The notes beneath the pieces are model-generated. The model saw only the letters and a list, made by a program, of their open reading frames with translations. It made no database searches and was not told where the DNA came from. A DNA stretch of 64,000 nt, taken from contig DATLVI010000013.1 in assembly GCA_035577545.1 (NCBI GenBank), positions 67,778 through 131,777 on the forward strand, given 5' to 3'. Within the stretch, counting starts at the first letter, position 1. Each line of letters starts with the position of its first letter. Positions 43,867-61,599 of this stretch are shown here, piece after piece. This DNA is from Verrucomicrobiia bacterium (GTDB taxonomy: Bacteria > Verrucomicrobiota > Verrucomicrobiia > Palsa-1439). A program made the position numbers and the translations under genes.

Positions 43867-43977
43867 TCGGGCATCCGCGCCACATTAATGGACGTAACCG
43901 ACGGCCGAGCACATTGCTATCACGCGAGTTATATCCCTTTGCGGTGGCACGTGGAGTGCTATGAATTGGCGTAGATT

Positions 43978-45763: not shown

Positions 45764-46678
45764 TCATCCCCCCGGAGATTTATCGGCCAAATGATCAATG
45801 CGATCCAGATTACGATCGACAGCCTCAAGATAAAGATTGCGTCCATTGCCGAAGTGGTGCGGTAAAACCTGGTGAACCTGCCCCCATTGTTTCTCGAGCA
45901 ACTGCCCTACACGACCTTCATAGAATGCCCGGGTCTGGCGCATCAGGTCTGTGGCGCCGCTGTAAGTCGTGATGCCGGCTTCCGCGAACTCGCGGTACAA
46001 CGCGGGCAACCGTTCGGGGTAATCATCAGCAGCCATTTGACCAAGCATGTCGCCGGCGCCGAGTGCGCTCCCGAGGAACCGTTCACGCTGGTCCCGAAAC
46101 TCAAGCTTTGAAGTGTCAACTTCGATGCCAGTGCAGTTAATGGCCAACTGCACGACGCGCACTTCGTCAGCGGTGACCCCCAGTGGCGGCAGAAACGTGG
46201 CGGCAAACTCGGCGCTGCGCTTCACATGAATCAGTGTGTACTTGGCCCCAGTGCCTTTGACATCACCAATCTGCTTAATGTAGCCCGTGTCATGCAATAA
46301 GATGGCGGCAACAGCGAGTTCAAAATCCCGGGCGCTGACCGTCGGCAATTGACCGCTTTTGATTTGTCCATCCAGGATTCGCAGCGTCGTAACGGTCGCC
46401 TGGCAAGTGTGTGCCAGGTCGTGGAATTTCGTGTCACAAGCCTGATATCCCGGAAAGCGACCGGCGAAAAGCTCGCCTACTTTGTTGAACACCGCGACCA
46501 GGAACTCCGTGCTGCGACCAGGGAAATCCTCGCTGAAAAGACTGCAGACGAATTGCAACGTCTCCGGTGCGCCTCGAAAATCAAGCAAATGGCCAATCGG
46601 CTTTTGGTCGGACATGAGTATCACAGGCTCGCCAATCCAGTGTTCCGATGCAACTCTAAAATCTCCCGCAATCGTCAC
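45764..46678 (-). CDS. HD-domain metal-dependent phosphohydrolase
   Basis: 304 aa. HD motif context ..FHDLAH.. and ILLHDTGY. Confidence 0.55.
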   Translation of the reverse strand: MTIAGDFRVASEHWIGEPVILMSDQKPIGHLLDFRGAPETLQFVCSLFSEDFPGRSTEFLVAVFNKVGELFAGRFPGYQACDTKFHDLAHTCQATVTTLRILDGQIKSGQLPTVSARDFELAVAAILLHDTGYIKQIGDVKGTGAKYTLIHVKRSAEFAATFLPPLGVTADEVRVVQLAINCTGIEVDTSKLEFRDQRERFLGSALGAGDMLGQMAADDYPERLPALYREFAEAGITTYSGATDLMRQTRAFYEGRVGQLLEKQWGQVHQVLPHHFGNGRNLYLEAVDRNLDRIDHLADKSPGG

Positions 46679-48180
46679 AGGCGAAAGAGCGCCTGGAGTT
46701 GGTTGCGGAAACCAGCCGTATATTGCCGTTGCTCCTCGATGGCAAGCGGCGTGGTCCCCCGGGCTGCCAGCTTCCCCTCAGTTTCCAATTTGCGTTTTGC
46801 CAGCAACTCGCTGATTTCCTGCAACACCCGGGGTTGTTGCCGGAAGACCTCCGCCAGCATTGCGCGATCGAGTTCCGCGACTTCGCAATCGGCGGTGGCC
46901 GTAACGGTGGCCGACCGTTTCTCGCCGGTAAGCAATGACATCTCGCCAAAACAGGCGCCGGAATGGAGCGCGGCCAGGTGCGTGCGGGCGCCGTTGTTTG
47001 TGACCGACACATCCGCCGTGCCAGTCATCAACACAAACATCGAGTCTCCGTTCGCATCTTGTTGGAGCATTTTTTCACCACGTCCAAATCGGTGAATCCG
47101 CACGCCAGCCAGTAGCGTCTGCAGTTGCGGATCTTCCACGGAGCGGAACAGCGAATGTTGTCGGAGCGCGGTGCGCACCGCTTCGAGGTGCGGCTCGGTC
47201 GTTAGAGCGGGAGGCGCTTGCATGTAGATCGTGCGCGTGGGATACGGGATCTTGATGTGGTGGCGCTGCAACTCATACCAGATGTTGGTGCGCACGGCAT
47301 CTTCCACCTCGTTGTACACGGTGTGATCGTCCATCCAGTACCGGAGTTCATACACGTTGGCAAAATCTCCAAAGTTTTTGAGGTAGACCTGCGGAGGAGG
47401 ATTCGCGAGCACATGCTCGACGGTAGCGGCTGCATGCGCCAGAACGTCCTTTACGCGGTTGGGAGGCTCTGCCTGGTCAATTCCCAACTCCAACCGCATG
47501 GCGTGCTTGCGAACCGGGTAATAGAGATTGGCAATGGTCTGACGGGCAATCTGGCTGTTGGGCACGTCCAGCCACAAGTCGTCGTTCGTCCGCACGCGGG
47601 TGGATCGCCAGCTCATCTCCATGACTTCGACGTGCCGATGCTCAAAGAGCAGCCAATCCCCGACCTTGAATGGCTTCTCGAAATGGAGCACACAGCCCGC
47701 AATCACATTGGCCAGGAGATCCTGGGCCGCCAAACCAACCGCCAGCGCAAGAATGCCGGAGCCCGCGAGCAGGCCGGGGATTTGGATGTGAAAACCAACG
47801 CTGAGGATCAACAGAACGGCTGTGCTCAGAATCGCCAGTGCGACCACGTCGCGCACCACGCGAGGAACTACAATCTTGCGTTTCTGCTCGAAGTAGAGTT
47901 CCCACACCATCCGCCGGGTCAACGAAACCGCCAGCAGGGCAGACAGCAAAACCGTGGCGGCTCCGAGGGCGTCCCGCCACCACATGGTGGGCGCGGTGAG
48001 GCTCGTTGCGATATAGAGGGCCAACGCGCCACTGAACATTTCATAGAGCACACCCCAACGCATCCCCACACGCTGCTTCAACCACCGTCCCCCGGCCAGG
48101 AGCACAAGGTACGCCACCAGCGCGGTCACCGGCAGCAACACGCCTACTTCGCCAGCCGTTCTCCAATTCAAGACAGCCAT
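46675..48180 (-). CDS. Mechanosensitive channel (MscS family) fused to a C-terminal cyclic-nucleotide-binding domain (bCNG-type)
   Basis: Start at the internal Met MAVLNWRTAGE (~48180; the ORF upstream is Arg/Ser-rich junk). TM helices, then an MscS core (GDWLLFEHRHVEVMEMSWRSTRVRTNDDLWLDVPNS). C-terminal CNB domain (FGRGEKMLQQDANGDSMFVLMTG..FGEMSLLTGEKRSATVTA). Confidence 0.7.
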   Translation of the reverse strand: MAVLNWRTAGEVGVLLPVTALVAYLVLLAGGRWLKQRVGMRWGVLYEMFSGALALYIATSLTAPTMWWRDALGAATVLLSALLAVSLTRRMVWELYFEQKRKIVVPRVVRDVVALAILSTAVLLILSVGFHIQIPGLLAGSGILALAVGLAAQDLLANVIAGCVLHFEKPFKVGDWLLFEHRHVEVMEMSWRSTRVRTNDDLWLDVPNSQIARQTIANLYYPVRKHAMRLELGIDQAEPPNRVKDVLAHAAATVEHVLANPPPQVYLKNFGDFANVYELRYWMDDHTVYNEVEDAVRTNIWYELQRHHIKIPYPTRTIYMQAPPALTTEPHLEAVRTALRQHSLFRSVEDPQLQTLLAGVRIHRFGRGEKMLQQDANGDSMFVLMTGTADVSVTNNGARTHLAALHSGACFGEMSLLTGEKRSATVTATADCEVAELDRAMLAEVFRQQPRVLQEISELLAKRKLETEGKLAARGTTPLAIEEQRQYTAGFRNQLQALFRL

Positions 48181-48253
48181 CACGGGGCCGCATACTAGCC
48201 GCGGCTCGTACCGGTGGCAAAGCTTTACTCTGCGCGTCAGGGCCAGTATAAAC

Positions 48254-50458
48254 ATGCGCGAGCGGGGGCTCGTGATGACAAAGTGCATTGGTGACGGACG
48301 ATGTCGATTATTAATCCGGTTGGTTGCCTTGCTTTGGCTGGGCACCGCATCGTTATTTGCGGATCCCGCGACCGCTGGCAACACCAATGGCCAGATTGCG
48401 GCCTTGATCAAGTTGTCCGCAGCCTGCCAATCGTCCGGACAGCATCCGCGCGCGGAACAGCTTCTCCAGGAAGCGGTCGATCTCGCCAAATCATCAGGCG
48501 ATCGCAATGCGTTGATTTTGGCGATGAGTAAACTGGGCGCCGCTTGCACGATGACGCGGCAGTTGAACCGCGCAGAGACATTGTTGCGCGAGAGCCTGGA
48601 GATGGCGCGTGCCGATGGAAACCTGCAAATGACAGGCGCCATCCTGAACGATCTCGGCAATGTGTTGGGATTGCGCCAGAAGTATGCGGAGGCACTCGAT
48701 GTATTTCAGCAAAGCGTTGCCGAGGCTCGCAAAGGCGGCAATAAACTGCTCATCGCCCAGGCCCTGTGCAACGCAGCCTCAACAGCCGCGCGGGCTGGCA
48801 TGATACAGCAAGTCGACACATTGAACGCAGAGGCGCTCGATCAGATCGCGCAACTCGACGCATCGCACGAGAAAGCATACTTATTCATCACCGCCGGTGA
48901 GACTGATGCTGCCCAACAGCATTCGCAGCGCGCGCAACAATCTTATCAACATGCGCTGGACGTTGCCGAAGCGATTGGCGACCACGGCGCTGCCAGTTAC
49001 GCTCTCGGGTATTCCGGCGAACTTTACGAGCGCGACAAGCAGCTTGATCAAGCATCGTCCTTTACCCGCCGGGCGATTTTTGAGGCGCAACAAGCCCGGA
49101 TGCCGGAAGCATTGTACCGCTGGGAATGGCAATCCGGCCGGCTCCTGAAAAGGCAAGGTGAGACGGAGCAAGCAATGGCAGCATACCGGCGTGCGATCCA
49201 AACCCTGCAACCGATTCGGCACGACATTTCTCTCGGCAATGGCAACGCGACGACCCACGTTTCGTTTCGCGAGGCGGAAGGACCATTGTACTTCGAAATG
49301 GCTGACCTGCTACTCCAACAAGCCGGTCATTCGAAAGATCCACAGCCGCTGCTGCTGGAAGCGCGTGATACGGTGGAGCAACTTAAGGCGGTTGAGCTGG
49401 AGGATTATTTTCAGGATGAGTGTGTCAATGTTGCGCGCGCACGGACCAGGTCACTCGAGGCCGTGGACGGCCACACGGCAATCGTGTACCTGATCCCGCT
49501 TGGCACGCGCACGGAAGTGTTGGTGGGCCTGGCATCCGGCCTGCACGACTTCACGGTGGACGTTGGAGTGGACACGCTGGCGGCGGAAGTCCGGGAGTTT
49601 CGGCGCAACCTGGAAACACGCACGTCATATGGCTACCTCGCTGAAGCGCGACAGCTTTACGACTGGATCATCCGCCCGATACACGGCCTATTGATTGAGA
49701 ACCGCATCGACACGCTGGTGTTCGTGCCGGACGGCGCGCTACGCACAATCCCATTCGCCACCTTGCATGATGGAAAGAAGTTTTTGATCGAAGAATACGC
49801 AGTAGCGGTGGCACCGGGTCTTTCGCTGATTGAACCGCGCCCGATCCAACGGGCGAACGCGCGTCTGCTATTGGGCGGATTATCGGCATCCGTGCAGGGG
49901 TATCCGTCCTTGAATTTTGTGCCTGCTGAACTGCATGATATCGAACCGATGTATCCCAGTGAGACGTTGTTGAACAAAGACTTCGTGTTGCCGTCGATCA
50001 CCGGGAAACTTACCAAGGAACAATACAGCATCGTCCACATTGCCTCGCATGGTCAGTTCAATAGCGATGCGCACAAAACGTTTGTACTGACCTACGATGG
50101 GAAATTGACATTGGATGATCTGGAAGCGTTGATTCGTCCCAGCCAGTATCGCGGCAAACCGGTGGAACTCCTGGTGTTGAGCGCGTGCCAGACCGCGTCC
50201 GGCGACGATCGCGCCGCGCTGGGGTTGGCCGGCGTGGCGATCAAGGCCGGCGCGCGCAGTGCGCTGGCCTCGCTGTGGTTCGTGAACGACCAATCTACCT
50301 CTGCATTGATTTCCGAATTCTATCACCAGTTGCGCGAATCGCCATCCGTCTCAAAAGCCCGGGCGTTGCAAGCGGCCCAAATCAAGATGCTGAACGACCC
50401 ACGCTACCGGCATCCGTGCTATTGGGCACCGTACTTGATCATCGGGAATTGGCTGTGA
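48254..50458 (+). CDS. TPR-repeat + CHAT-domain (caspase-like protease) protein, secreted or periplasmic
   Basis: 734 aa. N-terminal hydrophobic signal. TPR-like repeats (ALILAMSKLGAACTM.., ALDVFQQSVAEARK..). C-terminal CHAT domain with His/Cys dyad context IVHIASHGQF and LLVLSACQTASGDD. Confidence 0.7.
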   Translation: MRERGLVMTKCIGDGRCRLLIRLVALLWLGTASLFADPATAGNTNGQIAALIKLSAACQSSGQHPRAEQLLQEAVDLAKSSGDRNALILAMSKLGAACTMTRQLNRAETLLRESLEMARADGNLQMTGAILNDLGNVLGLRQKYAEALDVFQQSVAEARKGGNKLLIAQALCNAASTAARAGMIQQVDTLNAEALDQIAQLDASHEKAYLFITAGETDAAQQHSQRAQQSYQHALDVAEAIGDHGAASYALGYSGELYERDKQLDQASSFTRRAIFEAQQARMPEALYRWEWQSGRLLKRQGETEQAMAAYRRAIQTLQPIRHDISLGNGNATTHVSFREAEGPLYFEMADLLLQQAGHSKDPQPLLLEARDTVEQLKAVELEDYFQDECVNVARARTRSLEAVDGHTAIVYLIPLGTRTEVLVGLASGLHDFTVDVGVDTLAAEVREFRRNLETRTSYGYLAEARQLYDWIIRPIHGLLIENRIDTLVFVPDGALRTIPFATLHDGKKFLIEEYAVAVAPGLSLIEPRPIQRANARLLLGGLSASVQGYPSLNFVPAELHDIEPMYPSETLLNKDFVLPSITGKLTKEQYSIVHIASHGQFNSDAHKTFVLTYDGKLTLDDLEALIRPSQYRGKPVELLVLSACQTASGDDRAALGLAGVAIKAGARSALASLWFVNDQSTSALISEFYHQLRESPSVSKARALQAAQIKMLNDPRYRHPCYWAPYLIIGNWL

Positions 50459-52377
50459 AGTTGTCTCCGCGGTTGGTGGGTTTGTTGATCGTCCTCGCGG
50501 TGTTCTTCTCCGCACTTTTGGTCCGACGGCTGGGGTGGTTACAATTCCTCGAGTTTCGCGCCTACGATTTCTTCATCCAACAGCAACCGAAGGCCGTAAC
50601 AAGTGACCCGATCGTGTTGGTGGAGATGACCGAGAAGGACATTCAAAGCCCGACGCTGGATTATCCGATTACCGACGATAAGCTGGCGGAATTGCTGAGC
50701 ATTTTGGAGGCGCAACAACCCGCAGTGATCGGACTGGACATCTGGCGCGACATCCCGGTGCCGAAAAACGGCGTGCACTTTCGCCAGCTCAACGAGACGT
50801 TGCTCGCGCACACCAATATCGTTGCCATTTTCACCCTGGGAGGGATCGGGCCGCCGCAGGCGCTGGCAGCGAATCCCGAACGACTGGGGTTCAATGACAA
50901 TCTGCCCGTCGACGACCGGGTGGATAAAACGACACCGAAAGTCCGGCGCGGCCTGCTGATTGGCGATTCGAAATCCGGGCAGAGCTTCGATTCGATCGCG
51001 TTTCGTGTGGCAGAAGTCTATTTGGAGCGGCAGGGCATTGTGCCACGATTCGATCCTGCCGATCCTGACTCGTTTCAACTGGGCAAGACGCGACTGCGGG
51101 CATTCGAGGCAAACGACGGCGCGTACGTGGGCGCCGACGCTCGCGGCTGGCAAATACTGCTCGACTTCAAGTGTCCGGACGAGTTCGCCCGACATTCGGT
51201 CGGCGAGGCGCTCGCTGGCGGAATCCCACCTGGCAGCCTGCGCGGCAAAATTGTGTTGGTGGGGATGAATGCGCCAAGCGTCTCTGACGAGCGCGTCACG
51301 CCGATTCGTTCCAATCATCATGGTATCGAGGTGCAGGCGCAGATTATTCATCAATTGTTGCGCGCGGCACTCAACGGCGAGAGACCGCTCCGGTTCTGGA
51401 AGGACTGGGAAGAGGATGCCTGGATGTTGTTGTGGTGCCTGGTCGGCGGGGCGATCGGTTACTGGATCCGGTCTCCGTGGCGGTTCCTTGCGGCCATTGG
51501 GCTGGTACTGCTCGCGCTGGGCTGGATCGCGTGGCGATCATTTCTCGCGGGTTGGTGGATTCCGTTGATGGCCCCGGTGGCAGCCTGCCTGCCGGCAGCG
51601 GCATTGATGACGTCATACATTTCCTTTGAAGAACGAAAACAGCGCGGCCAACTCATGCAGTTGTTTTCCAATCAGGTGTCACCCGACATCGCGCAGGCGC
51701 TTTGGGAACAGCGGCATGAGTTCCTGGCCGGCAATCGCCCGCGTTCACAAAAGCTAATCGCTACCGTTCTCTTCACCGATCTCAAAGGCTTTTCGGGCAC
51801 CTCGGAAGGACTGGAGCCTGCGCAGTTAATGGACTGGCTTAATGAATACATGGAAGCGATGGCCAACGCCGTGATGGCTGAACAAGGCGTGGTCGAGAAA
51901 TACATCGGCGACTCGATCATGGCCGTTTTTGGCGTCCCGATCGCGCGCGTGTCGCAGGAGCAGATTACGCAGGACGCCCGCAACGCCATTTGCTGCGCCC
52001 TGGCCATGCGCAAAGAAATGGAGCGGCTCAATGCGGAGTGGAAACAGCGAAATATGCCGGTCTGTAGTATGCGCATCGGCATTCACACCGGGCCGCTGGT
52101 GGCCGGTAGCCTCGGCAGCGTCGAGCGACAGGAGTACACGGTCATCGGCGATGCGGTGAACACGGCATCACGGTTGGAAAGCTTCGATAAGGACACCGGC
52201 TCCAATGACAGCGTCTGCCGCATCCTCATCAGTGAAGCAACGAAACTGTTATTAGGTGAAGAGTTTGAGCTGAGCCCATTGGGTACAATGAGCTTGAAAA
52301 ACAAGAGTGAGAAAGTCATCATCCATCGCGTGGTTGGGCGAGCCAGCCGCGAACCCGGAGGTCAGCGTGAGAATTAA
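50455..52377 (+). CDS. CHASE2 extracytoplasmic sensor domain fused to a class III adenylate/guanylate cyclase
   Basis: GTG start overlaps the CHAT gene stop (GTGA). N-terminal TM + CHASE2 region, 3 TM helices, then a cyclase domain (ATVLFTDLKGFSGTSE, IGDSIMAVFG, IGIHTGPLVAGSLGS..YTVIGDAVNTASRLES). Confidence 0.7.
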   Translation: MKLSPRLVGLLIVLAVFFSALLVRRLGWLQFLEFRAYDFFIQQQPKAVTSDPIVLVEMTEKDIQSPTLDYPITDDKLAELLSILEAQQPAVIGLDIWRDIPVPKNGVHFRQLNETLLAHTNIVAIFTLGGIGPPQALAANPERLGFNDNLPVDDRVDKTTPKVRRGLLIGDSKSGQSFDSIAFRVAEVYLERQGIVPRFDPADPDSFQLGKTRLRAFEANDGAYVGADARGWQILLDFKCPDEFARHSVGEALAGGIPPGSLRGKIVLVGMNAPSVSDERVTPIRSNHHGIEVQAQIIHQLLRAALNGERPLRFWKDWEEDAWMLLWCLVGGAIGYWIRSPWRFLAAIGLVLLALGWIAWRSFLAGWWIPLMAPVAACLPAAALMTSYISFEERKQRGQLMQLFSNQVSPDIAQALWEQRHEFLAGNRPRSQKLIATVLFTDLKGFSGTSEGLEPAQLMDWLNEYMEAMANAVMAEQGVVEKYIGDSIMAVFGVPIARVSQEQITQDARNAICCALAMRKEMERLNAEWKQRNMPVCSMRIGIHTGPLVAGSLGSVERQEYTVIGDAVNTASRLESFDKDTGSNDSVCRILISEATKLLLGEEFELSPLGTMSLKNKSEKVIIHRVVGRASREPGGQREN

Positions 52378-53095
52378 TTTGTGGCGTTGTGGCGCGTTGC
52401 TTGTCGGTCTGTGCGTGATGCTACCGGTCGCGGCCCGGTCGGAGGACAAGCCGTCTCCGCCGGCCGGGGAAACTGTCCCACCGGTGAAGTTTCGACCGCC
52501 CTCGCGCGGCGCACCGGCCACGCGCCTGACCGGCGGATCGCGCGGCAGTGGGGACGCGACAATCACTTTGGACGTACTGGCTCCCGACGAGACCGGCTTG
52601 ACAACTCAGGAACAACCCTCGCTGTTCTGGTATCAATCCAAACCCGCCGCGGCAAAGTTCGAGTTGACGCTGTTGGAAGAGAACAAGCTCAAGCCCTTAC
52701 TCCAGGTCAAATTCGAGCGTTCCAGCAAGGCCGGCATTCAACGAATCAAACTCTCCGAGCACGGCGTGAAGCTTGCGCCCAATGTTGAATACCAGTGGGT
52801 CGTCGCGCTGGTCACCGATCCTGACAACCGTTCGAGCGACTTGGTGGCCAGTGGAGCGATCAAACGCATCGAGCCGTCCGCCGAGTTGCGAGCCAGGATT
52901 GCCGGGGCTGGCCCGGCGGCCCTGCCCGGTATCTACGCCGAGGCCGGTATCTGGCATGACGCGCTGGAAACTCTTTCGGATATGGTCGATGCCCGGCCCA
53001 ACGACAAAGCATTGCGCCAGGCGCGCGCCGATTTATTGACCCAAGTGGGCCTGAAGGCCGCCGCAAGTTCCGAAGGCGCGCTCGCCAGGAAATAA
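52367..53095 (+). CDS. Secreted DUF928-like protein
   Basis: Probable GTG start overlapping the cyclase stop. Signal peptide LVGLCVMLPVAARS. The DUF928 assignment rests on my recollection of the family (PSLFWY.. region) and its known co-occurrence with CHAT/CHASE2/TPS genes in cyanobacteria; it needs an HMM check. Confidence 0.4.
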   Translation: MRINLWRCGALLVGLCVMLPVAARSEDKPSPPAGETVPPVKFRPPSRGAPATRLTGGSRGSGDATITLDVLAPDETGLTTQEQPSLFWYQSKPAAAKFELTLLEENKLKPLLQVKFERSSKAGIQRIKLSEHGVKLAPNVEYQWVVALVTDPDNRSSDLVASGAIKRIEPSAELRARIAGAGPAALPGIYAEAGIWHDALETLSDMVDARPNDKALRQARADLLTQVGLKAAASSEGALARK

Positions 53096-54700: not shown

Positions 54701-57131
54701 CCGCACCCATCGGCACTGAACTTGGCACGAACCCGCCTGGCTCGATGGGCAATCCTCCGGGCCCAAGCACGATGAAACTGCTGACATTACCGGCCAATCG
54801 CACTCCGCAATCGGGACGCAACAAGGATTCCGCGTCCAGAAGATCCGCCGGCAAGGCCACGAGGCTTCCGCTTAGATCCACATTCGGGGCGGTAACGACC
54901 ACAGTGCCGGGAATCCCGGACGGCGTCGATACGTCAAACGGACTTTCGGAGGCGAAGAAGAAGTCAGAGTTGACCGTGACCTTGCCCCCATTGCCCTGGA
55001 CATCCACCTTGGCGGTAATTGGGCTCTCATTCAATATTACGAAGGTCGGATCGAACGTGATATTCCCACCATTACCCTGATGCGCGTTGGCGCTGAGGGG
55101 ACTGTGTAACAAATAGATGCGGCGTCCAGCCGTCAATTCGATGTTGCCGCCATTCAGCGCGGCTTCGGCAGTGATCTGGCTGTGCTTGAGTTGAATGTCC
55201 CTGCCGGCCATCACGGAGATATCGCCGCCGTCGTTGTTCGCCGCCGAAACCTGCAGCGCACTGTGATCGGTCATTGTCAACGAGCCGTCCACCTGCAATG
55301 AGACTCCACCGGCCGCTCCGTCTGCCTCGCCGGCCGCTTTTATTGTGGAACTGCCCGCCAGCGTCACGTTCCCGGCTTGAATCTCGACGTTGCCGCTCGG
55401 ACCGGCGCCGGAGCTGTCGGTAAAAATCGAGCTCATGTTCCGCAGTTCGAGCATGCCGGCGGAGATGTGAATGTCACCGCCGGGCGCTGGCGCGTCGGAG
55501 CTGGTGGTGACTGCCTGGATGAACGATGAGTCGAGTAGAATGGAGTTGGCCGTGATTTCGACACTGCCACCCTTCCCAGAACCAAAAGTGGCCGCCGCTA
55601 CAGTCCCAAAAGCGGACATGTTGACAGACTTGGCGGTGATGCCGATGAAACCCGCATCCCCAGAGCCAAACGTGGCCGCGAGGAGCGTGGCACCGTTAAG
55701 TATTTCGAGAGAATCCGTCTGGATAATTATATCGCCGGCGTTACCGCCGCCATTGATCTGCTGACTGTTCGCAGTGATCTGCGTGGGCGTGGTGAGCATC
55801 GCGTCAAGTCGCACGGACGAAGCCGTGATGTCGATGCGCCCGGCATTTCCGGCGCCGAAGGTAGCGGAAGAGATTTGGGCACTGTTTACCAATTCGAGGC
55901 TGCCGGCTTGAATCGTGATGTCGCCGCCCTTGCCAGCACCACCGCCAAGAAGTGGATCCCCGGTTGCGGCGGAGATTTGCGTCGTCGGGTTAAAATTATT
56001 GTCCGTCAAGCCGCCGCCATCCAACCGGATCGAGCCGGCCGTGATGCTGATATTTCCGCCCGCGCCAAGGCCCATGGTCGACAGGCTGTCGATTTGGCCA
56101 CCATTGACGAGATTCAAATCGTTGACAACGGAGATGTCGATTCCCTGACCGTCGCCCGCGCCGGTGGTATTGGCCTGGATAAAGGAACCGTCCACCATCA
56201 GGCCACCGCCGCGGATGACAATCCGGCCGCCACCGTCACCATTCGCGTCGAGTTGCGCACCGTTTAGCAAACTGATCTGGCCTTGTTGCGGAAACGCCGC
56301 GTTGAATGCCGCGACGCTCAGTGTCGTCGGATCCACAGGCACTTCCCCGGCGGATTGGACGCTGACCATGTTGATTTGCCCGGCAGGCGCCTGCACCAAA
56401 CCGCCATCGACGGAAATGTCACCGCCGACGAGCGAGATTGATTTGCCGGCTGGCACAGCAAGGACACCCTGCTGCACCGCAATACTGCCGGGACTTCCTC
56501 CGAGAAATCCAAAAGCGCTAACCGGAGCCGAACTCAAAAGGGAATCGTCCGCACCCACCGCGGCCACGAATCGCGCACCATCGGCTAATTTCAGATAATC
56601 GGCGGTGCTGGCGGCGAAGGAACCGCTGACGTCGATCCTGGCGTTGGGACCGAAGATGATGCCCTTGGGATTGATAAAGAAAACGTTGGCTCCTGAGATC
56701 GTGGAGCGGATTAGTCCATCAATCGAAGAGGGACTGCCACCGGTGACTCGGGATAAAATGTTCTGGATCGTGTTCGGGCCAGAAAAGGTCGCGATGTCCC
56801 CGCTGGACAAGTCAAACTGTGAGAAGCTGAAGAAAAGATTGTGCCCGACTGTTTTGCCGTCGCCGGAGGTGATGTTGAAAGCCGGCCCGGAGAGCGATTG
56901 GCCGGTTTGACCCAACGAGTGATCGAATGTGACCTGGCCGGCCTCAGACGAAAGTCCCCCCGAGCCTGCCATTAGACAGGCTATCGCAAAAGCGCGAATG
57001 GTCTTTGCCAATTCCAAGTCGCTATCGGACTTTTTCTCACACCCGGCAGTTCGGTCAGGGTTTGAGATCGATGTAAACGTAGTGCTGGCTGCCGTCAGAC
57101 AAAGTGGCAATGATCTTCCAAGTGCCCGCAC
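54687..57131 (-). CDS. TpsA exoprotein with N-terminal hemagglutination-activity (TPS) domain and beta-helix repeats
   Basis: 814 aa. TPS domain motifs NITSGDGKTVGHNLFFSFSQFDLSSGDIATFSGP and NILSRVTGGSPSSIDG, then G/N/T-rich beta-helical repeats. Lies immediately upstream of tpsB on the same strand, overlapping it by ~14 nt. Confidence 0.7.
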   Translation of the reverse strand: MRALGRSLPLCLTAASTTFTSISNPDRTAGCEKKSDSDLELAKTIRAFAIACLMAGSGGLSSEAGQVTFDHSLGQTGQSLSGPAFNITSGDGKTVGHNLFFSFSQFDLSSGDIATFSGPNTIQNILSRVTGGSPSSIDGLIRSTISGANVFFINPKGIIFGPNARIDVSGSFAASTADYLKLADGARFVAAVGADDSLLSSAPVSAFGFLGGSPGSIAVQQGVLAVPAGKSISLVGGDISVDGGLVQAPAGQINMVSVQSAGEVPVDPTTLSVAAFNAAFPQQGQISLLNGAQLDANGDGGGRIVIRGGGLMVDGSFIQANTTGAGDGQGIDISVVNDLNLVNGGQIDSLSTMGLGAGGNISITAGSIRLDGGGLTDNNFNPTTQISAATGDPLLGGGAGKGGDITIQAGSLELVNSAQISSATFGAGNAGRIDITASSVRLDAMLTTPTQITANSQQINGGGNAGDIIIQTDSLEILNGATLLAATFGSGDAGFIGITAKSVNMSAFGTVAAATFGSGKGGSVEITANSILLDSSFIQAVTTSSDAPAPGGDIHISAGMLELRNMSSIFTDSSGAGPSGNVEIQAGNVTLAGSSTIKAAGEADGAAGGVSLQVDGSLTMTDHSALQVSAANNDGGDISVMAGRDIQLKHSQITAEAALNGGNIELTAGRRIYLLHSPLSANAHQGNGGNITFDPTFVILNESPITAKVDVQGNGGKVTVNSDFFFASESPFDVSTPSGIPGTVVVTAPNVDLSGSLVALPADLLDAESLLRPDCGVRLAGNVSSFIVLGPGGLPIEPGGFVPSSVPMGADDGE

Positions 57132-58203
57132 TCAAACCTTTCGTGGCAAGGTTGAAATGCCACGTACCAGAACCATCCGGTTGGAACAGATTGCCAGTGG
57201 TGGCACCACCCGTAGGCGACGCGTCGACGGCTGATTCCCCGCCTACCGTGCCATCACACTTGGACAACTGAATCGTGTGACTGCCAGTCAGGACAGGCGA
57301 CCCATCGCAGTTCAGAAGAGTCATCTTAATCGGGATGGTACTGCCCAGCTTGAACCCTCGTACGGCCGAAGCGCAGGTGCCGCCAGTGACATCCCCGCCG
57401 CCGATGGGAGGCAGGAAACCAGTGAATGACAGCGGACACGGAAGCGAGACGGCAATTCCGTCCGTGACCATATAAACCAAATTGGGGTCATTGGTTGCGC
57501 AGAAACTGTAATTGATCACTTCATCAAAGTTCGTTGGGCATGGCCCCTCGCAGCATGTAGGGCATTCGGGGATGAAAACGTAGGCACGGACCGGGAAAGG
57601 AAAGTCTGTCGGCAATTGCACGGCACCGGGCAGGGAACCTACGTCTCCGGTGAAGTTCGTAGGAAGCGCAGCATCGAACTCATAGAATTTGATCTGTTGT
57701 GCCGCTCCGGCGTCGGATCCCGACCAGTGCCAGGAGAATGAATATAGGGCTTGGCCGTCGGAGCACCCATTGGTCTCGATGGTAGACGAAAGGACTTCCA
57801 GAGTCGTGGATGACACCCGCGACGTCGCGGTCACGTAACCTGTCAATTCGCTGTTATCGGTCTTGTCACCATTGCTTGCCGTGGTGGTGGACTTCCAAAC
57901 GTAGCCCGGTTGCCCCAGGATGCGGGCCAGTGTTTTAGTGGACGCCCCGCTGGGAAGGGGGCCGCCAGCGACAAAACCCGGGGTGTTAGTCATGGCCGCA
58001 CTCGGGCTGGTCATGAGGGCTGTGGCTACCGTGTTAGATTTGAGCGTTGATGAGGTGACATTGACGGAAGCCTTTCCAAAGCCCGAGCCGTTCATCGAAC
58101 CCGTCCAGCCCGCCAGCGCCGATGGCCCATGGCCAATGACTACTCCAAGTGCTACCGCGCATCCGAACCGCATATAATGACCAATGCCCTGCTTCATATT
58201 CAT
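57055..58203 (-). CDS. Secreted Cys-rich hypothetical protein upstream of tpsA
   Basis: Start at MNMKQGIGHYMRFGCAVALGVVIGHGPSALA. Ser/Thr-rich N-terminal half. C-terminal half has CPTCCEGPCP and 10+ Cys. Confidence 0.4.
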   Translation of the reverse strand: MNMKQGIGHYMRFGCAVALGVVIGHGPSALAGWTGSMNGSGFGKASVNVTSSTLKSNTVATALMTSPSAAMTNTPGFVAGGPLPSGASTKTLARILGQPGYVWKSTTTASNGDKTDNSELTGYVTATSRVSSTTLEVLSSTIETNGCSDGQALYSFSWHWSGSDAGAAQQIKFYEFDAALPTNFTGDVGSLPGAVQLPTDFPFPVRAYVFIPECPTCCEGPCPTNFDEVINYSFCATNDPNLVYMVTDGIAVSLPCPLSFTGFLPPIGGGDVTGGTCASAVRGFKLGSTIPIKMTLLNCDGSPVLTGSHTIQLSKCDGTVGGESAVDASPTGGATTGNLFQPDGSGTWHFNLATKGLSAGTWKIIATLSDGSQHYVYIDLKP

Positions 58204-58671
58204 CGTTCTCCCTTTGCTACTCCCAAGGTAACCGGAACACACGTCCTACCGAATTCGTCACTCTGAGTTATACAACCCGCGACCCTTTTCTCACTTGGGT
58301 TTGGTGGATTTGGCGGCCCATCGCAGGTATACAGAAAACCAACCACCCTGTCAAGCTTGCAGGATAAGCCCTCCAGCAACAAGTGAAGTTTGACAGAGCT
58401 TCCTTCGTGTCCCGTTCTGCAGCGTAGCAGTAAGCTTACAGGCGTCTGCGGTCAGACCGGTGTGATTGGGTTGTTCTGCTGTTACATGAGCAGGATGTCC
58501 AAAACACGAGAGATCATGCCGGCTGTGTAGTGATCGGGTTGGTTTAGCTGAGCAGGCTTCTGCATAACTGCTTTCAGAGGCGCGAAGGTGGACGATGGTC
58601 CGCGATTACGGCACGCTTGGCAGGTGTGCCACGGCGTGGTAGAAGTTCAGCTTCAATCGCCGTCGCCCGGT

Positions 58672-59454
58672 ATGCGTGATTCCGTCACATTTCTCGGTAC
58701 ATCAGATGGTTTGCCGTCTCCCGGCCGGCATCATGCGTCCTTGCTGCTAGAATTTGCCGCGCGGACCATCCTCCTGGACTGTGGCGAACCATGCAGCCAT
58801 ACTCTCAAGAGGATGGGGAAGGATTTCAGCGCCATTGACATGGTCGTCATCAGCCACACCCACGCGGACCACATCGGTGGCTTCCTAATGCTCATGCAGT
58901 CCATGTCGCTGGAAGGGCGACGACGGCCGCTGACCGTTTGGATGCCCGGGCATGCGATACGATTGATGCGGGAGTGCTTGGATGCTTGTTACCTGTTTGA
59001 ACCACAGCTGGGTTTTTCGGTGAAATGGATCGCGTTTGATAAACATTCGGCGATGCGATGCGGGCCGATACAACTGCGTGCGTTTCGGACCACGCACCTC
59101 GATAATCTGCGCAAACAGTACGGCGTGCCGCGTCCGGCAGTACAGTTCGACGCGTTTTCCCTGCTGGCGACAGGAGGCGGCAAGCGGCTGGCATACTCGG
59201 GCGATATGGGTATGCCCGAGGATTTGCGGCCACTGTGCACGAAATCTCTCGACTTACTGGTGGTCGAGTTGGCACACTTTCAACCGAGGGAGCTGGTTGA
59301 ATTCCTGCAACCGAAGGATGTGCGGCGCGTAGCAATTACGCACATTGGGCGACCAGCGTGGGCACGACTCGCCGAGGTCAAGGCCCTGGCGGGGAACGTA
59401 TTGGGTCCACGAAAAACGCTGTTTGCGATGGATGGAGACGTCGTAAAATTCTAA
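58672..59454 (+). CDS. MBL-fold metallo-hydrolase (HxHxDH; RNase Z / class II cNMP phosphodiesterase-like)
   Basis: Start at the internal Met MRDSVTFLGTSDG... Motif VISHTHADHIGG. Confidence 0.55.
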   Translation: MRDSVTFLGTSDGLPSPGRHHASLLLEFAARTILLDCGEPCSHTLKRMGKDFSAIDMVVISHTHADHIGGFLMLMQSMSLEGRRRPLTVWMPGHAIRLMRECLDACYLFEPQLGFSVKWIAFDKHSAMRCGPIQLRAFRTTHLDNLRKQYGVPRPAVQFDAFSLLATGGGKRLAYSGDMGMPEDLRPLCTKSLDLLVVELAHFQPRELVEFLQPKDVRRVAITHIGRPAWARLAEVKALAGNVLGPRKTLFAMDGDVVKF

Positions 59455-59471
59455 TTTGGAGGAGGCGAGAC

Positions 59472-59978
59472 ATGGCTGCCAACCTGGTTCCTGATAGCGG
59501 GGCGCAATTCACATCGAGCGAATTGCGTCGCATCAAGCTTTTTGCGGACATGACAGATGAGGACATTTCCATTCTTAACGCAGTTATTGAGCCGGTCACC
59601 TGTCGCCCCAACCAGATCATCGTGAGCGCTGGTGATGTCGGTGACTGCATGTTTCTGGTCATGCAAGGTGAATTCCGTGTTAGCCTTGTTTCACAGGGGC
59701 GGGAAGCATTACTGGCCAAGCTTGAGACGGGCGATTTCTTCGGCGAACTGTGCCTGCTCGACGAGAACAATCGGTCGGCGGACGTGGTGGCGACGGTGCC
59801 GGGACGGCTGTTGCGGTTTTCGCGCGCGGCGTTTCAGCAGTTGGTGGAGACACGCCCGCAGGTGGCGGCGCGTTTGATGATGGGAATCTTGCGGACGGTC
59901 GGTAGCCGCTTGCGGAAGATGGACAAGCAACACTCGGACTCGATGTTGCTCAGTCGCTCGTGGAAAACGATCCGTTGA
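59472..59978 (+). CDS. Standalone cyclic-nucleotide-binding (CAP effector-type) domain protein
   Basis: Start at MAANLV with RBS GGAGGAGG upstream. CNB signature GDFFGELCLL..RSADVVA. No obvious DNA-binding HTH follows. Confidence 0.6.
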   Translation: MAANLVPDSGAQFTSSELRRIKLFADMTDEDISILNAVIEPVTCRPNQIIVSAGDVGDCMFLVMQGEFRVSLVSQGREALLAKLETGDFFGELCLLDENNRSADVVATVPGRLLRFSRAAFQQLVETRPQVAARLMMGILRTVGSRLRKMDKQHSDSMLLSRSWKTIR

Positions 59979-60271
59979 GCGGTGGTTGGCCACACCCCGT
60001 CGCAGTTGCCGCACTACGTCCAAGTCCCTGCAACCGAACACAGCAGACGGCTTGATTACCGTTCCCGCCCCCGTCGTTCCACGCCACAACCTGCACGCCG
60101 AGTGGGCCACTGCGCGGCGCCCAGGCTGCCAAGGTTCGGCCGCCTTGTCCAATACGCCGCACGAACCCGCACGGACCCTAGCTTGTTCCTAAATGTCAAA
60201 AAATCCAGGGGACTTCCAGGCATAGGTCCCTAGGTTTGCGAGCGACCAAGACACTGTCAACTTAGTCAACA

Positions 60272-60285
60272 TTTGTGTACACAAA
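60272..60285. promoter_or_regulatory. Perfect 14-bp palindrome TTTGTGTACACAAA flanked by direct repeats ACTTAGTCA (60260..60268 and 60290..60298); candidate enhancer/operator
   Basis: Seen directly in a lower-GC intergenic region, ~135 bp upstream of a sigma-54-like -24/-12 element. Confidence 0.3.
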
Positions 60286-60417
60286 GTGTACTTAGTCACG
60301 GCTGTTACGGCCGGGGATCTTGGACGGTAATCCCGATTTCTGAAATCGATGTATCATATTGTATATGAATTATTTGCGATATAACTATTTGTGCTGGATT
60401 GCTTGGTAAAATCGGGT

Positions 60418-60433
60418 GTGGCATGGCCTCTGC
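60418..60433 (+). promoter_or_regulatory. Candidate sigma-54 promoter (TGGCAT-N5-CTGCG; GG-N10-GC spacing)
   Basis: Matches the TGGCAC-N5-TTGC consensus at 5/6 and 3/4 positions with exact spacing. About 60 nt upstream of the NHL gene ATG. A sigma-54 activator gene lies 1.1 kb downstream. Confidence 0.3.
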
Positions 60434-60492
60434 GATAGGACTCCTCAGTCATGAAAGTGAAACCCGGCGCCAATCGAAAAGAGGAGGAGCAA

Positions 60493-61599
60493 ATGACACA
60501 GGTAAAGTCCATCGAGCAAAACCAGGAACAAACGATCAACCGTCCGCAGGTGACCACGCTCCGGGCGCTGGCCGTGTGTCTGGCCATTTCGGTTGCCGCA
60601 GCGGCCACGAGCAAAGCTATGAACCTGAAGTCGGGCGACATTGTCATGGCGGATTCTTCGTCCGCCGTCCTGCGAGTCGACCCCAAAACGGGAGCGGCCA
60701 CGGTCATTTCCTCAGGCGGAAATCTTGTGCGCCCCTTCGGAGTCGTCGTTGAGGCGGACAGTAATATCCTCGTGGCCGACTCCGGCGCTCTGGCGATCAT
60801 CCGCATTGATTCGCAGACCGGTTCGAATCGCGTCGTTTCCTCAGGAGGCGTTCTCGGAACGCCTTACGGGATTACTCTTGATCATCAGGGAAACATCCTC
60901 GTCGCGAATGCCCAGGCCGTTGTCCGGGTCGATCCTCAGAGCGGCGCGCAAACCGTGGTGTCCGCAAACGGGATGTTCCGAGCACCGGTCGGCGTCGCGG
61001 TTGCTGGCGATGGCGGCATTTTCGTGGCGGACATGACCGGGACCATCGTCCGCGTCGACCCGGCGAGCGGAACGCAAACCAATATCAGCGCAGGGACATA
61101 CCTGGTAAATCCAGTGGGGATCACGATTGACGACGACGGCAGTCTCCTTGTAGCCGACGAAGGTTCCCACGCTCTCGTCCGCCTGGATGCCGCCAGCGGA
61201 GCACAACAAGTGGTCTCCGTCGGAAATGATCTGGTAACGCCGGTCAGCGTCGTAATCGGGGCCCAGCACGACGTCCTCGTGGGCGACCCGGATGCATTCA
61301 GCTTGAATGGAGCCGTGATTCAGATTGACCCCGCGTCGGACACCCAGACCAACGTATACATGGGCAGCGGGGAATTGGTCAACCCCCGCGGCATCGCGCT
61401 GGTGCCAACGGTCCGTGGCCGGATCGACCAACTCTGCCCCTGCCAGGGACCCTCTTCCGGCACGATGTGGAAGAATCACGGAAAGTACGTCGGCGCCGTG
61501 TCCAAAGTAGCCCGCCAGTTTGTGAAGTCGGGATCGATCACGAAGGACGAGCAGCGCACCATCATCCACGAAGCCCTGTTGTCCCAATGCGGCCGATAA
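60493..61599 (+). CDS. Secreted six-bladed beta-propeller (NHL/YVTN-like repeat) protein
   Basis: Start at MTQVKS with RBS GAGGAGG. Signal/TM LRALAVCLAISVAAAA. Six ~43-aa repeats of the form V.RVDP.SG....V.S.G.L..P.GV. Confidence 0.55.
   Translation: MTQVKSIEQNQEQTINRPQVTTLRALAVCLAISVAAAATSKAMNLKSGDIVMADSSSAVLRVDPKTGAATVISSGGNLVRPFGVVVEADSNILVADSGALAIIRIDSQTGSNRVVSSGGVLGTPYGITLDHQGNILVANAQAVVRVDPQSGAQTVVSANGMFRAPVGVAVAGDGGIFVADMTGTIVRVDPASGTQTNISAGTYLVNPVGITIDDDGSLLVADEGSHALVRLDAASGAQQVVSVGNDLVTPVSVVIGAQHDVLVGDPDAFSLNGAVIQIDPASDTQTNVYMGSGELVNPRGIALVPTVRGRIDQLCPCQGPSSGTMWKNHGKYVGAVSKVARQFVKSGSITKDEQRTIIHEALLSQCGR

Follow-up and report, generated by a model that had tools for sequence, protein, structure and literature searches.

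A TPR-CHAT, CHASE2-cyclase and DUF928 cluster with a two-partner secretion pair: a candidate envelope-spanning signalling system in a Verrucomicrobiia bacterium

Introduction

In Pseudomonas aeruginosa, LapD-LapG controls the TpsA adhesin CdrA/CdrB from the inside out, with c-di-GMP as the messenger; LapG is a DUF920/C93 protease, LapD is a degenerate GGDEF-EAL receptor, and CdrA has a periplasmic anchor and cleavage region. A TPR-CHAT architecture with a His/Cys dyad is found in Csx29 of the type III-E CRISPR "Craspase"; this enzyme and those of the separase type (clan CD) act in the cytoplasm, under RNA or cell-cycle control. Pycsar, encoded by two genes and likewise cytoplasmic, pairs a pyrimidine-type class III cyclase with a CNB-domain effector of the TIR or TM kind. 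In Sinorhizobium meliloti, the NsrA-CyaD1/CyaD2/CyaK-Clr pathway uses CHASE2 class III adenylate cyclases, which an external protein signal can activate only with the help of an outer-membrane beta-barrel protein, and a CNB-family regulator reads the cAMP (PMC7529298, PMC13001267, PMC5498481). The Bordetella FhaB/FhaC proteins form a two-partner secretion (TPS) pair; the C-terminal part of the substrate is reported to stay periplasmic and to be proteolytically processed, for which a regulatory meaning has been proposed (PMC4542190).

The locus analysed here, in a 64,000-nucleotide stretch of a Verrucomicrobiia genome (the window), shares parts with each of these systems. As in LapD-LapG/CdrA, a TPS substrate whose C-terminal region is probably periplasmic occurs together with a cysteine protease predicted to reach the periplasm, a protein of the inner membrane that bears a periplasmic domain, and a second messenger of the cyclic-nucleotide kind. 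There is no homology between the parts, however, the membrane protein of the window would itself make the messenger, and scans with Pfam, NCBIfam and PADLOC found no GGDEF, EAL or LapG-type family in the window proteins. The TPR-CHAT protein differs from the Csx29 and separase type in its predicted signal peptide and its linkage to secretion genes. The likeness to Pycsar lies at the level of domains (PADLOC matches), whereas the window has a periplasmic CHASE2 sensor, Lys/Thr purine-type specificity residues, a candidate phosphodiesterase (PDE) and secretion genes. With the S. meliloti pathway it has in common a CHASE2-cyclase, an outer-membrane beta-barrel and a candidate CNB reader of cAMP, but in an S. 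meliloti CHASE2-cyclase region (L093, which may or may not be cyaD1) the neighbour is a FecR-domain gene, and CHAT, DUF928 and TPS genes are absent by annotation (PMC5498481). FhaB/FhaC resembles the window's TPS pair, whose substrate C-terminus would likewise be periplasmic and may be processed; FhaB, at ~370 kDa, has a large prodomain and is processed by unrelated proteases, and the system has no CHASE2 receptor, DUF928 or cyclase.

Results

A preliminary description had placed a nucleotide cyclase, cyclic-nucleotide (cNMP) receptors, candidate phosphodiesterases, a CHAT protease, a DUF928-like protein, a TpsA/TpsB pair and an NHL propeller within 45764-61599. Pfam and NCBIfam profile searches recovered all of them with significant matches, except for the HD protein. 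The conserved core is TPR-CHAT, CHASE2-cyclase and DUF928 in that order, together with TpsB and TpsA. We identified at least 462 DUF928-anchored loci in species-representative genomes and kept the 80 closest relatives of the window's DUF928 subfamily, so that the frequencies may not hold family-wide. Among the 40 full loci (DUF928-anchored, from different species, with ≥7 kb on both sides), CHAT was present in 38, CHASE2 in 36, a cyclase in 37, TpsB in 34, TpsA in 36 and CNB in 16, and none had MBL, NHL or MscS; the core genes occur together far more often than by chance. The hosts were Verrucomicrobiota, Proteobacteria, Nitrospirota, Rokubacteria and Acidobacteria. The same parts were carried by cyanobacterial plasmids, but with CHASE2 joined to a His kinase (L086), with CHAT-CHASE2 (L085, L095, L096), or with CHASE2 and no recognised output (L094, L097). 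Gene identities, conservation of linkage and catalytic residues, and output swapping are the established part of the analysis, and the physical tie of the cNMP set to the CHAT protease and TpsA/TpsB proposed earlier is also an evolutionary one. A literature search found no paper describing the ensemble or giving it a function, as had been supposed.

The plus-strand operon begins with the TPR-CHAT gene (48254..50458; Pfam CHAT, E 1e-58, and TPR_12), which encodes a caspase-like, clan CD protease and whose stop codon overlaps the start of the CHASE2-cyclase gene (4 nt). Its dyad His (HIASHG) and Cys (LSACQ) were kept in 61 of 61 orthologues, and we therefore count it as an active enzyme, as predicted from sequence. 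The N-terminus, RCRLLIRLVALLWLGTASLFA/DP, resembles a signal peptide. A start-agnostic heuristic with ~30% false positives found signal-like N-termini in 48/58 CHAT orthologues, 69/74 DUF928 proteins and 75-86% of TpsA/TpsB, compared with 25-35% of cytoplasmic controls; both CHAT and DUF928 are predicted to be exported. CHAT also occurs in clusters without any cyclase, namely L037, L038, L040, L042 and L046 and the cyanobacterial loci. On these two grounds we rejected the proposal that CHAT is a cNMP output.

The second gene (50455..52377, plus strand; CHASE2, E 5e-50; Guanylate_cyc, E 9e-26) encodes an inner-membrane receptor laid out as a transmembrane (TM) segment, a periplasmic CHASE2 domain, three TM segments and a cytoplasmic, adenylate-type class III cyclase; a gene call of 640 aa was likewise made in L001. 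Because both metal-binding Asp residues, the Asn and the Arg were conserved in 66/66 cyclases, it too is counted as active. The window cyclase carries the Lys/Thr substrate pair and appears to be a class IIIb-type adenylate cyclase whose product is probably cAMP rather than cGMP. The substrate Lys was conserved in only 39/66, so the nucleotide product may vary among members.

The cyclase frame overlaps by 11 nt that of DUF928 (52367..53095, plus strand; E 5e-41), an adaptor-like protein predicted to consist of a disordered N-terminal motif, an Ig-like sandwich and TPR-like helices, the TPR half being of the peptide-binding type in the model. The linear motif in the N-terminal tail, VKFRPPSRGAPATRLTGGSRGSG (52484..52552, plus strand; family consensus PPxRGAPxxRxGGGxRG), has low pLDDT, and columns P44, P45, G48, R53, G56 and R59 were invariant or nearly so in 51 aligned representatives, most of which share 35-46% identity with the window protein and the nearest few up to 62%. 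A PG_binding-DUF928 fusion was also found. MtxA of Magnetospirillum (PDB 4z29) has no detectable sequence relationship to DUF928, possesses an additional N-terminal domain and lacks the motif.

Convergent with DUF928, with zero intergenic space, is tpsB (53096..54697, minus strand; ShlB, E 5e-33; POTRA_2, E 2e-20), the last gene of the minus-strand operon, encoding an outer-membrane transporter with POTRA and a 16-strand Omp85-type barrel. It overlaps by 11 nt tpsA (54687..57131, minus strand; TPS domain, Pfam E 4e-42; TIGR01901, 77 bits; start codon uncertain), whose short exoprotein of ~800 aa has a TPS domain and beta-helix repeats. A family-specific motif at its C-terminal tail, C-x(6-10)-SSF-x-V-x-G-[R/K/P/S]-G-G-x-P-x-x-P (54717..54809, minus strand), was found at the C-terminus of nearly every TpsA from the 80 loci, among them those of CHASE2-less clusters and cyanobacterial plasmids; like the DUF928 motif, it is conserved from Verrucomicrobiota to Cyanobacteria. 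The majority form is GRGG, but the window has GPGG and L004 has Ser in place of Arg, so simple Arg-specific cleavage at this site is unlikely. The operon begins with a gene for a Cys-rich secreted protein of 395 aa with a C-terminal PxKF domain (57055..58242, minus strand; NF038114, 51.7 bits, cutoff 35), for which a PDB search returned no relative. In 10/80 loci, which are among those nearest the window and mostly labelled Verrucomicrobiota, an orthologue directly precedes tpsA; the protein is a lineage-specific accessory.

Divergent from the CHAT gene, across a gap of 73 bp, is a gene for an MscS-family channel with a C-terminal CNB domain (46675..48180, minus strand, ATG at 48180 as read from the sequence; MscS, E 1e-17, with MS_channel_2nd and MS_channel_3rd; cNMP_binding, E 9e-15), a candidate cAMP-gated output by its domains. 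L001-L003 have the same gene at this position, and other loci fill the slot with a different CNB effector. CNB genes were directly beside the core in 30/80 loci (29 of 35 CNB ORFs within 500 bp of a core gene) and were joined to highly varied effectors: glutaminase-STAS in 12, Ser/Thr kinase in 4, CRP-type in 3, and a DASS transporter, His kinase, sigma54 activator and MBL in one each, besides small standalone forms. The HD protein is encoded 60 nt downstream of the channel gene (45764..46615, minus strand). It gave no Pfam match at E≤0.01 and only a weak one to the HD-family Npun_R2479 profile (51 bits, cutoff 400), but its model has, with high confidence, the fold of a class I cyclic-nucleotide phosphodiesterase. 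PF28239 was present in all of its homologues. Unlike the eukaryote-type class I enzymes (PDE4/7/9, RhoPDE), with which it shares only 10-17% identity, it is ~280 aa long, without regulatory domains or a Pfam class I PDE match. On the model, it is a candidate cAMP eraser.

Discussion

In our judgement there is an even chance that the cluster belongs to a widespread, uncharacterised envelope-spanning signalling system whose output here is cAMP. The data are compatible with the surface-sensing role suggested in the preliminary description. On our reading, the exported parts form an input module in the envelope, to which different cytoplasmic outputs can be coupled. TpsB would export or hold the short beta-helical TpsA, whose tail probably remains accessible from the periplasm, where the exported CHAT protease and the DUF928 adaptor would bind or act on it; we infer that the CHAT substrate is TpsA or DUF928. 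The periplasmic CHASE2 domain would read the state of this complex, and the cluster may thus reveal what CHASE2 sensors detect. The cytoplasmic output would differ by lineage; because it is here a class IIIb-type adenylate cyclase, the signal would become cAMP, to be read by the local CNB proteins (the channel and a small CNB protein) and removed by the class-I-like HD phosphodiesterase. An adjoining MBL hydrolase-CNB pair may supply a second eraser and reader. From domain logic only, we infer an outside-in direction: as transmitter modules, cyclases and kinases would be expected to pass information inward from CHASE2.

The opposite direction is unlikely, though several observations speak for it. 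The main job would be TpsA secretion, with periplasmic CHAT trimming the tail to release or activate TpsA, while the CHASE2-cyclase and cAMP sense an unrelated cue and tune expression or release, in the way that c-di-GMP acts on CdrA by means of LapD/LapG. The five clusters without CHASE2 (the five cyclase-less ones named above) retain CHAT, DUF928, TpsB and TpsA with its tail motif, so the set can occur where no receptor is encoded nearby, in keeping with a mainly secretory role. The tail motif and its conserved Cys seem to resemble the anchor and cleavage region of CdrA, and CRP-type and sigma54 CNB regulators adjoining some clusters could control the operons. However, a LapD-type, periplasm-facing cNMP receptor is absent, CHASE2 bears transmitter outputs (cyclase, kinase) rather than receiver domains, CNB partners are mostly enzymes, channels and transporters and not secretion regulators, and TpsA is short for an adhesin.

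We consider a conflict or defence function quite improbable, in which an envelope sensor would detect phage, predator or toxin and, much as in Pycsar/CBASS, trigger a second-messenger or caspase-type response, with the channel or other CNB proteins as effectors. PADLOC Pycsar cyclase and PycTIR models do match the cyclase and CNB domains, but no known system architecture fits. The effector slot varies and many copies are plasmid-borne, yet the window, an ordinary stretch of chromosome, shows no signs of mobile elements. The usual partners (glutaminase-STAS, CRP, sigma54 activator, His kinase) have regulatory or metabolic roles and not toxic ones, and abortive-infection modules have no dedicated PDE or secretion pair. 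Cyanobacterial relatives, in turn, join CHASE2-DUF928 with cytoplasmic CHAT domains, WD40-TPR-CHAT and Trypco2 proteins, architectures discussed as apoptosis-like systems (PMC8195603).

Signalling between kin or contacting cells, with TpsA or a CHAT-released TpsA or DUF928 fragment as the neighbours' signal and CHASE2 as its receptor, is very doubtful as well. TpsA and DUF928 do bear short, strongly conserved linear motifs beside a protease, and paralogous cluster pairs within a single genome, one member with the CHASE2 receptor and the other lacking it, are frequent (L033/L038, L039/L040, L030/L042). But cleavage or release is putative, the motifs are too conserved across phyla for strain specificity, and the idea is a sub-variant of our main model, not independent of it.

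Chance juxtaposition of unrelated genes is hardly credible, and for the core we reject it, since the core genes recur in 34-38 of 40 loci from several phyla and reading frames overlap; it does hold for part of the interval. Of the 16-kb "supercluster" first described, a conserved core of ~12.5 kb stands. The NHL beta-propeller gene (60451..61599, plus strand; Pfam NHL), absent from all 80 related loci and from L090, is an unrelated neighbour. The MBL-fold hydrolase of the RNase Z/ElaC/Apyc1-like kind (58672..59454, plus strand; Lactamase_B_2, E 6e-20; ISHTHADH) and the small standalone CNB protein (59469..59978, plus strand; cNMP_binding, E 5e-22), which starts 15 nt past the MBL stop, form a two-gene unit that travels on its own. 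The MBL gene is in none of the 80 related loci, and the orthologous pair (79% and, for CNB, 88% identity) adjoins a dCache-type cyclase in L090. The pair is a separate mobile cNMP unit and not, as had been proposed, attached specifically to the cluster. The hydrolase, a candidate second PDE, scored only 24 bits against the Apyc1 profile (cutoff 50) and matched RNase Z, ELAC and Apyc1 in the PDB over its N-terminal part only; the CNB protein is 48% identical to the one that accompanies HDp next to the L039 core. Beyond NHL, a GAF-sigma54 enhancer-binding protein gene (61692..63224, minus strand; GAF, Sigma54_activat, HTH_8) is possibly linked to the cluster. A search for a sigma54 promoter signal found none; 7/40 loci have a sigma54 activator within 10 kb, and in L065 a CNB-sigma54 fusion comes straight after DUF928.

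Gene organization of the interval

The preliminary description had read positions 45764-61599 as a write-read-erase module for cyclic nucleotides (cNMP) joined to a CHAT protease and a two-partner secretion (TPS) pair. We listed ORFs in all six frames, searched them with Pfam and NCBIfam profiles, and adjusted start codons using orthologous gene calls and direct reading of the sequence. Every component named in that description was present, arranged in four predicted transcription units (U1-U4) with two neighbouring genes. U1, on the reverse strand, encodes a channel that profile searches predict to be of the MscS family, with a cNMP-binding (CNB) domain at its C-terminus (46675-48180), and, 60 nt downstream of that gene, an HD-superfamily protein (45764-46615). 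U2 diverges from U1 with 73 bp between them and encodes on the forward strand a TPR-CHAT protein (48254-50458), a CHASE2-class III cyclase (50455-52377) and a DUF928 protein (52367-53095); the cyclase gene overlaps the TPR-CHAT gene by 4 nt, and the DUF928 gene overlaps the cyclase gene by 11 nt. Convergent with U2, and with zero intergenic bases, is U3 on the reverse strand, which encodes a Cys-rich PxKF-domain protein (57055-58242), TpsA (54687-57131) and TpsB (53096-54697), the last two genes overlapping by 11 nt. U4 on the forward strand consists of an MBL-fold hydrolase gene (58672-59454) and a small CNB protein gene (59469-59978) that begins 15 nt past it. The neighbours encode an NHL propeller (60451-61599, forward) and a GAF-sigma54 activator (61692-63224, reverse). 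The rest of the window carries ordinary chromosomal functions with a flat base composition, and the nearest relatives are genomes of Verrucomicrobiota assembled from metagenomes, of the subdivision 3 / Pedosphaera / Limisphaerales type. Promoter and terminator scans across 45-64 kb gave counts no higher than the shuffle expectation.

Conservation of the core

Because DUF928 (PF06051) is the smallest and most system-specific gene, we used it as the anchor for comparison between genomes. The protein library held 5,037 DUF928 representatives at 50% identity. A 51-sequence alignment was too diverse for search patterns, which were built from a closer set, and a pattern scan using one genome per species confirmed at least 462 DUF928 loci. 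The best 80 of these 462 loci were taken with 10-kb flanks, and their stop-to-stop ORFs were searched with the individual domains of the window. Among the 40 loci having at least 7 kb on each side, CHAT was found in 38, the cyclase in 37, CHASE2 and TpsA in 36 each, and TpsB in 34. A CNB domain gene was found in 16, a sigma54 activator in 7 and the HD protein in 5, while MBL, NHL and MscS were each found in 0 of 40. The co-localised ensemble proposed earlier is thus real, its core being kept in 34-38 of 40 loci, and, as proposed, no function for it was found in the literature. The core is co-localised across phyla, and parts of it also occur on cyanobacterial plasmids. The source taxa are Verrucomicrobiota, Gamma-, Beta- and Deltaproteobacteria, Nitrospirota, Nitrospinota, Rokubacteria, Acidobacteria and a Scalindua planctomycete.

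Across loci, CHAT, CHASE2-cyclase and DUF928 almost always follow one another in this order. The TPS pair switches sides and orientation from locus to locus, a pattern that speaks for selection to keep the genes close rather than for inheritance of a single ancestral arrangement. Five loci (L037, L038, L040, L042 and L046) lack CHASE2 and keep CHAT, DUF928, TpsB and TpsA. We also observed pairs of paralogous clusters within single metagenome-assembled genomes (L033/L038, L039/L040, L030/L042 and L036/L048), often with a CHASE2-cyclase in only one of the two; L036 and L048 lie on the same contig with 20 kb between them. One entry of the protein library (P0140, 932 aa) carries CHASE2, cyclase and DUF928 in one polypeptide, and is either a true fusion, in which the DUF928 signal peptide would serve as an extra transmembrane helix, or a read-through of overlapping genes.

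One extracytoplasmic cassette with different outputs

Relatives on cyanobacterial plasmids were found by tblastn. Pseudanabaena ABRG5-3 encodes in a row a ShlB-type TpsB, a CHASE2 protein, TpsA, CHAT and DUF928, and its CHASE2 protein ends C-terminally in a histidine kinase. On the plasmids pNFSY07 of Nostoc flagelliforme, pCC7120alpha of Nostoc PCC 7120 and pNPUN01 of N. punctiforme, the gene directly upstream of DUF928 encodes a CHASE2 protein whose N-terminal part is a cytoplasmic CHAT domain. Two further cyanobacterial loci have CHASE2 without a recognised output, and one of them adjoins a response regulator. These data show a conserved extracytoplasmic cassette, made up of CHASE2 with DUF928 and mostly accompanied by a secreted TPR-CHAT and a TPS pair. 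Differing cytoplasmic transmitters are attached to this cassette, which is our main argument for reading the cassette as an input device and cAMP as the output of the present lineage.

The predicted cAMP branch

The window cyclase and 66 of 66 orthologues keep the two metal-binding Asp residues together with the Asn and Arg of the transition state. The specificity residues in the window are Lys (EKYIGD) and Thr (EYTVIGD), the combination usual in class IIIb adenylate cyclases, and the orthologues have Lys in 39 and Thr in 45 of 66. From these adenine-specifying residues, the predicted product is cAMP. The sensor matched CHASE2 with 170.8 bits, and the hydrophobic segments read from the sequence give the layout of a CHASE2 receptor: an N-terminal transmembrane segment, CHASE2, a transmembrane bundle and a cytoplasmic output.

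The two CNB domains of the window scored 64 and 78 bits, and both contain a phosphate-binding cassette of the form G-E...R-S-A (FGEMSLLTGEKRSA and FGELCLLDENNRSA), whose G, E, R and A hardly vary among 36 neighbouring CNB ORFs. Such ORFs numbered 35-36 in 30 of the 80 loci, 29 of them within 500 bp of a core gene. Their partners included 12 glutaminase-STAS-CNB proteins, 4 Ser/Thr kinase-CNB proteins, 3 CRP-type proteins, and single fusions to a DASS transporter, a histidine kinase, a sigma54 activator and Lactamase_B_2; the others were small standalone proteins related to the small CNB protein of the window. In the MscS-CNB protein of the window, MS_channel_2nd and MS_channel_3rd exceeded their cutoffs, and the TM2/3 model scored 18.3 bits, below its cutoff of 23.1. 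MscS-CNB was found in the nearest relatives only, and the same slot holds glutaminase-CNB in many relatives. A glutaminase-STAS-CNB of about 640 aa is encoded just upstream of CHAT in L008, L010, L011, L013, L016, L021, L022, L027, L029 and other loci, suggesting that cAMP-regulated glutaminase activity is tied to the system in many loci, most of them with a Verrucomicrobiota label. The loci thus show cAMP wired to very different local effectors, ranging from a channel and glutaminase to kinases and transcription factors.

The HD protein, of the Npun_R2479 family, is predicted from its modelled structure to have the fold of a class I cNMP phosphodiesterase (PDE) catalytic domain with a His/Asp metal site, suggesting a bacterial family with a eukaryote-type class I PDE fold. 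Its sequence had no Pfam match at E<=0.01 and no PDE match in the PDB; thus, it possibly works like a class I PDE, yet we do not class it as a member. For this protein and for DUF928, useful structural comparison came only from the fold and not from PDB sequence searches. Outside the cluster, a CNB neighbour was found in one of three contexts of the HD family, indicating that the family is not confined to the present cluster type. Literature searches found no description of the Npun_R2479 family.

Components predicted to be exported

TpsA has an N-terminal TPS domain (Pfam TPS 145 bits, cutoff 33.5; TIGR01901 77 bits), and the adjoining gene encodes a type Vb TpsB (POTRA_2 72.9 bits, ShlB 115 bits); TpsA is predicted to be exported in a TpsB-dependent manner. 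Nearly all TpsA proteins of the family, including those of CHASE2-less clusters and of cyanobacteria, share the C-terminal tail C-x(6-10)-SSF-x-V-x-G-R-G-G-x-P-x-x-P. The window TpsA has GPGG instead of GRGG, so the Arg is dispensable, and we set aside Arg-specific cleavage at this motif. CHAT scored 199.6 bits, and the catalytic His and Cys of a clan CD protease are present in 61 of 61 orthologues. The N-terminus of the window CHAT resembles a signal sequence. A crude, start-agnostic signal-peptide heuristic applied to ORFs was positive for CHAT in 48 of 58, DUF928 in 69 of 74, TpsA in 42 of 49 and TpsB in 43 of 57, against 25-35% for cytoplasmic controls. DUF928 scored 141 bits against a gathering cutoff of 26; a PG_binding_1-DUF928 fusion exists, which also puts DUF928 in the periplasm. 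Its disordered segment bears the near-invariant motif PPxRGAPxxRxGGGxRG. PDB sequence searches gave no meaningful match for the DUF928 profile or for the 395-aa Cys-rich protein. The TPRs of the protease, the TPR-like build of the adaptor and the two conserved linear motifs together suggest that the exported parts may act in peptide recognition and regulated proteolysis.

A possible trans-envelope pathway and its alternatives

The system is real, conserved and uncharacterised, and builds on known TPS systems and receptor-cyclase signalling. We put at about even the chance that it works as an outside-in trans-envelope pathway. TpsB would hold TpsA at the outer membrane, and a signal from TpsA would pass to periplasmic CHAT and DUF928, whose state would be relayed to CHASE2 and so to cAMP; CNB effectors would read the cAMP, and the class-I-like PDE, the HD protein, would reset it. 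CHAT had been proposed as an output of cNMP; it would instead act upstream or in parallel.

To our knowledge, no ligand of a CHASE2 sensor has been known since the domain was defined. The only case studied is that of S. meliloti, in which an outer-membrane protein and a protein signal are implicated. It is also the nearest functional precedent: published work (PMC7529298, PMC13001267, PMC5498481) describes that its CHASE2 cyclases require the outer-membrane protein NsrA for sensing a protein signal. The S. meliloti region matched by the window CHASE2-cyclase probably contains one of the CHASE2 cyclase genes, with a FecR-domain gene alongside. The annotation of this region includes no TPS, CHAT or DUF928 genes, and we thus regard the likeness as an analogy with a different system. 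It is possible, though less likely than not, that TpsA/TpsB, exported TPR-CHAT and DUF928 make up the upstream machinery still missing for CHASE2, which would then read a protease-controlled protein ligand tethered to the outer membrane (the TpsA tail and/or the DUF928 motif) and not a small environmental molecule. The cluster supplies compact, conserved candidate partners of CHASE2 (TpsA tail, DUF928 and periplasmic CHAT) in hundreds of species, which makes the question testable. There is a substantial chance that the system stands for a new class of signalling across the envelope. If so, this class would rest on type Vb secretion and have interchangeable outputs (cAMP, phosphorelay, caspase-like effectors), two-partner secretion would have a signalling role instead of that of an adhesin or toxin, and a caspase-like protease would be located in the bacterial periplasm. 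Literature searches pairing CHAT or CHASE2 with two-partner secretion, or for the DUF928/CHAT/CHASE2/TPS ensemble, found no description; the single paper found to mention DUF928 does no more than list its neighbourhood with WD40 and CHASE2 in N. punctiforme.

In its logic the system comes closest to LapD/LapG/CdrAB, whose parts are non-homologous and whose information flow is opposite. Scans with Pfam and NCBIfam found neither a LapG-type protease nor a LapD GGDEF-EAL receptor in any window protein. Control of TpsA release from the inside in this manner would fit the CHASE2-less clusters, but the CHASE2 outputs are of the transmitter type and there is no periplasm-facing cNMP receptor, and we consider it unlikely. 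A conflict or defence system is a rather improbable reading: cyanobacterial CHAT-CHASE2 and Trypco2 contexts (PMC8195603) and domain-level Pycsar matches speak for it, but most CNB partners are regulatory or metabolic. PADLOC gave domain-level matches only and no defence-system architecture. Pycsar membership was rejected, the architecture of a two-gene cytoplasmic pyrimidine cyclase with CNB-TIR or CNB-TM being absent; the cyclase here, unlike that of Pycsar, has purine-type residues and forms part of a membrane receptor. A variant in which the system signals from cell to cell seems improbable to us, and chance juxtaposition is very improbable and would concern the periphery only. Separately, N. 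punctiforme pNPUN01 (L096, 2221-9654) encodes WD40-TPR-CHAT, Trypco2, CHAT-CHASE2 and DUF928 consecutively, which connects CHASE2-DUF928 with architectures that figure in discussions of apoptosis-like or conflict systems.

Genes at the periphery

The likeness of the MBL hydrolase to RNase Z, ElaC and Apyc1 is confined to its N-terminal metal-binding part. The Apyc1 profile scored 24.1 bits (cutoff 50) and covered residues 57-99 only, short of a full-length match, and the Apyc1 match in the PDB spans residues 51-115. In the genome holding the orthologous pair (L090, 10001-15152), the MBL and CNB genes, 79% and 88% identical to those of the window, lie with genes for a Pyr_redox_2 (NDH2-like)-CNB protein and a dCache-cyclase. 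Because the pair sits elsewhere with other cNMP genes, it is an independent unit that merely abuts the core here, plausibly combining a putative PDE with a receptor. The CNB partner accompanies MBL only in the close orthologue, and more distant MBL orthologues are without it; a Lactamase_B_2-CNB fusion near one cluster (L052) indicates that the theme of MBL plus CNB recurs. Membership of NHL is unsupported. The supercluster as first drawn was thus too wide: its conserved core stands, within narrower boundaries that leave out MBL-CNB and NHL.

The GAF-sigma54 activator is a possible member, with orthologues no more than 10 kb from the cluster in two or three of the loci, including L028 and L077. 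The sigma54 promoter pattern gave 72 matches where 82 were expected, with none of them in the relevant intergenic regions, and thus lends no support to control by the adjacent activator. The best -24/-12-like match in the window, TGGCACGTGGAGTGC at 43945-43959 (forward, 1 mismatch), lies just upstream of a response-regulator gene at 43978-44421. The GAF domain of the activator contains NK-x4-F-x3-DE, resembling the NKFDE signature of cNMP-binding GAF domains. At 44628-45287 (reverse), in a stretch of lower G+C (0.54), a putative 219-aa ORF has many CxxC pairs and no Pfam match. Two neighbouring long SPFH/Band 7 proteins (507 and 540 aa) with overlapping start and stop codons are encoded at 24555-27697 (forward) and are unrelated to the cluster.
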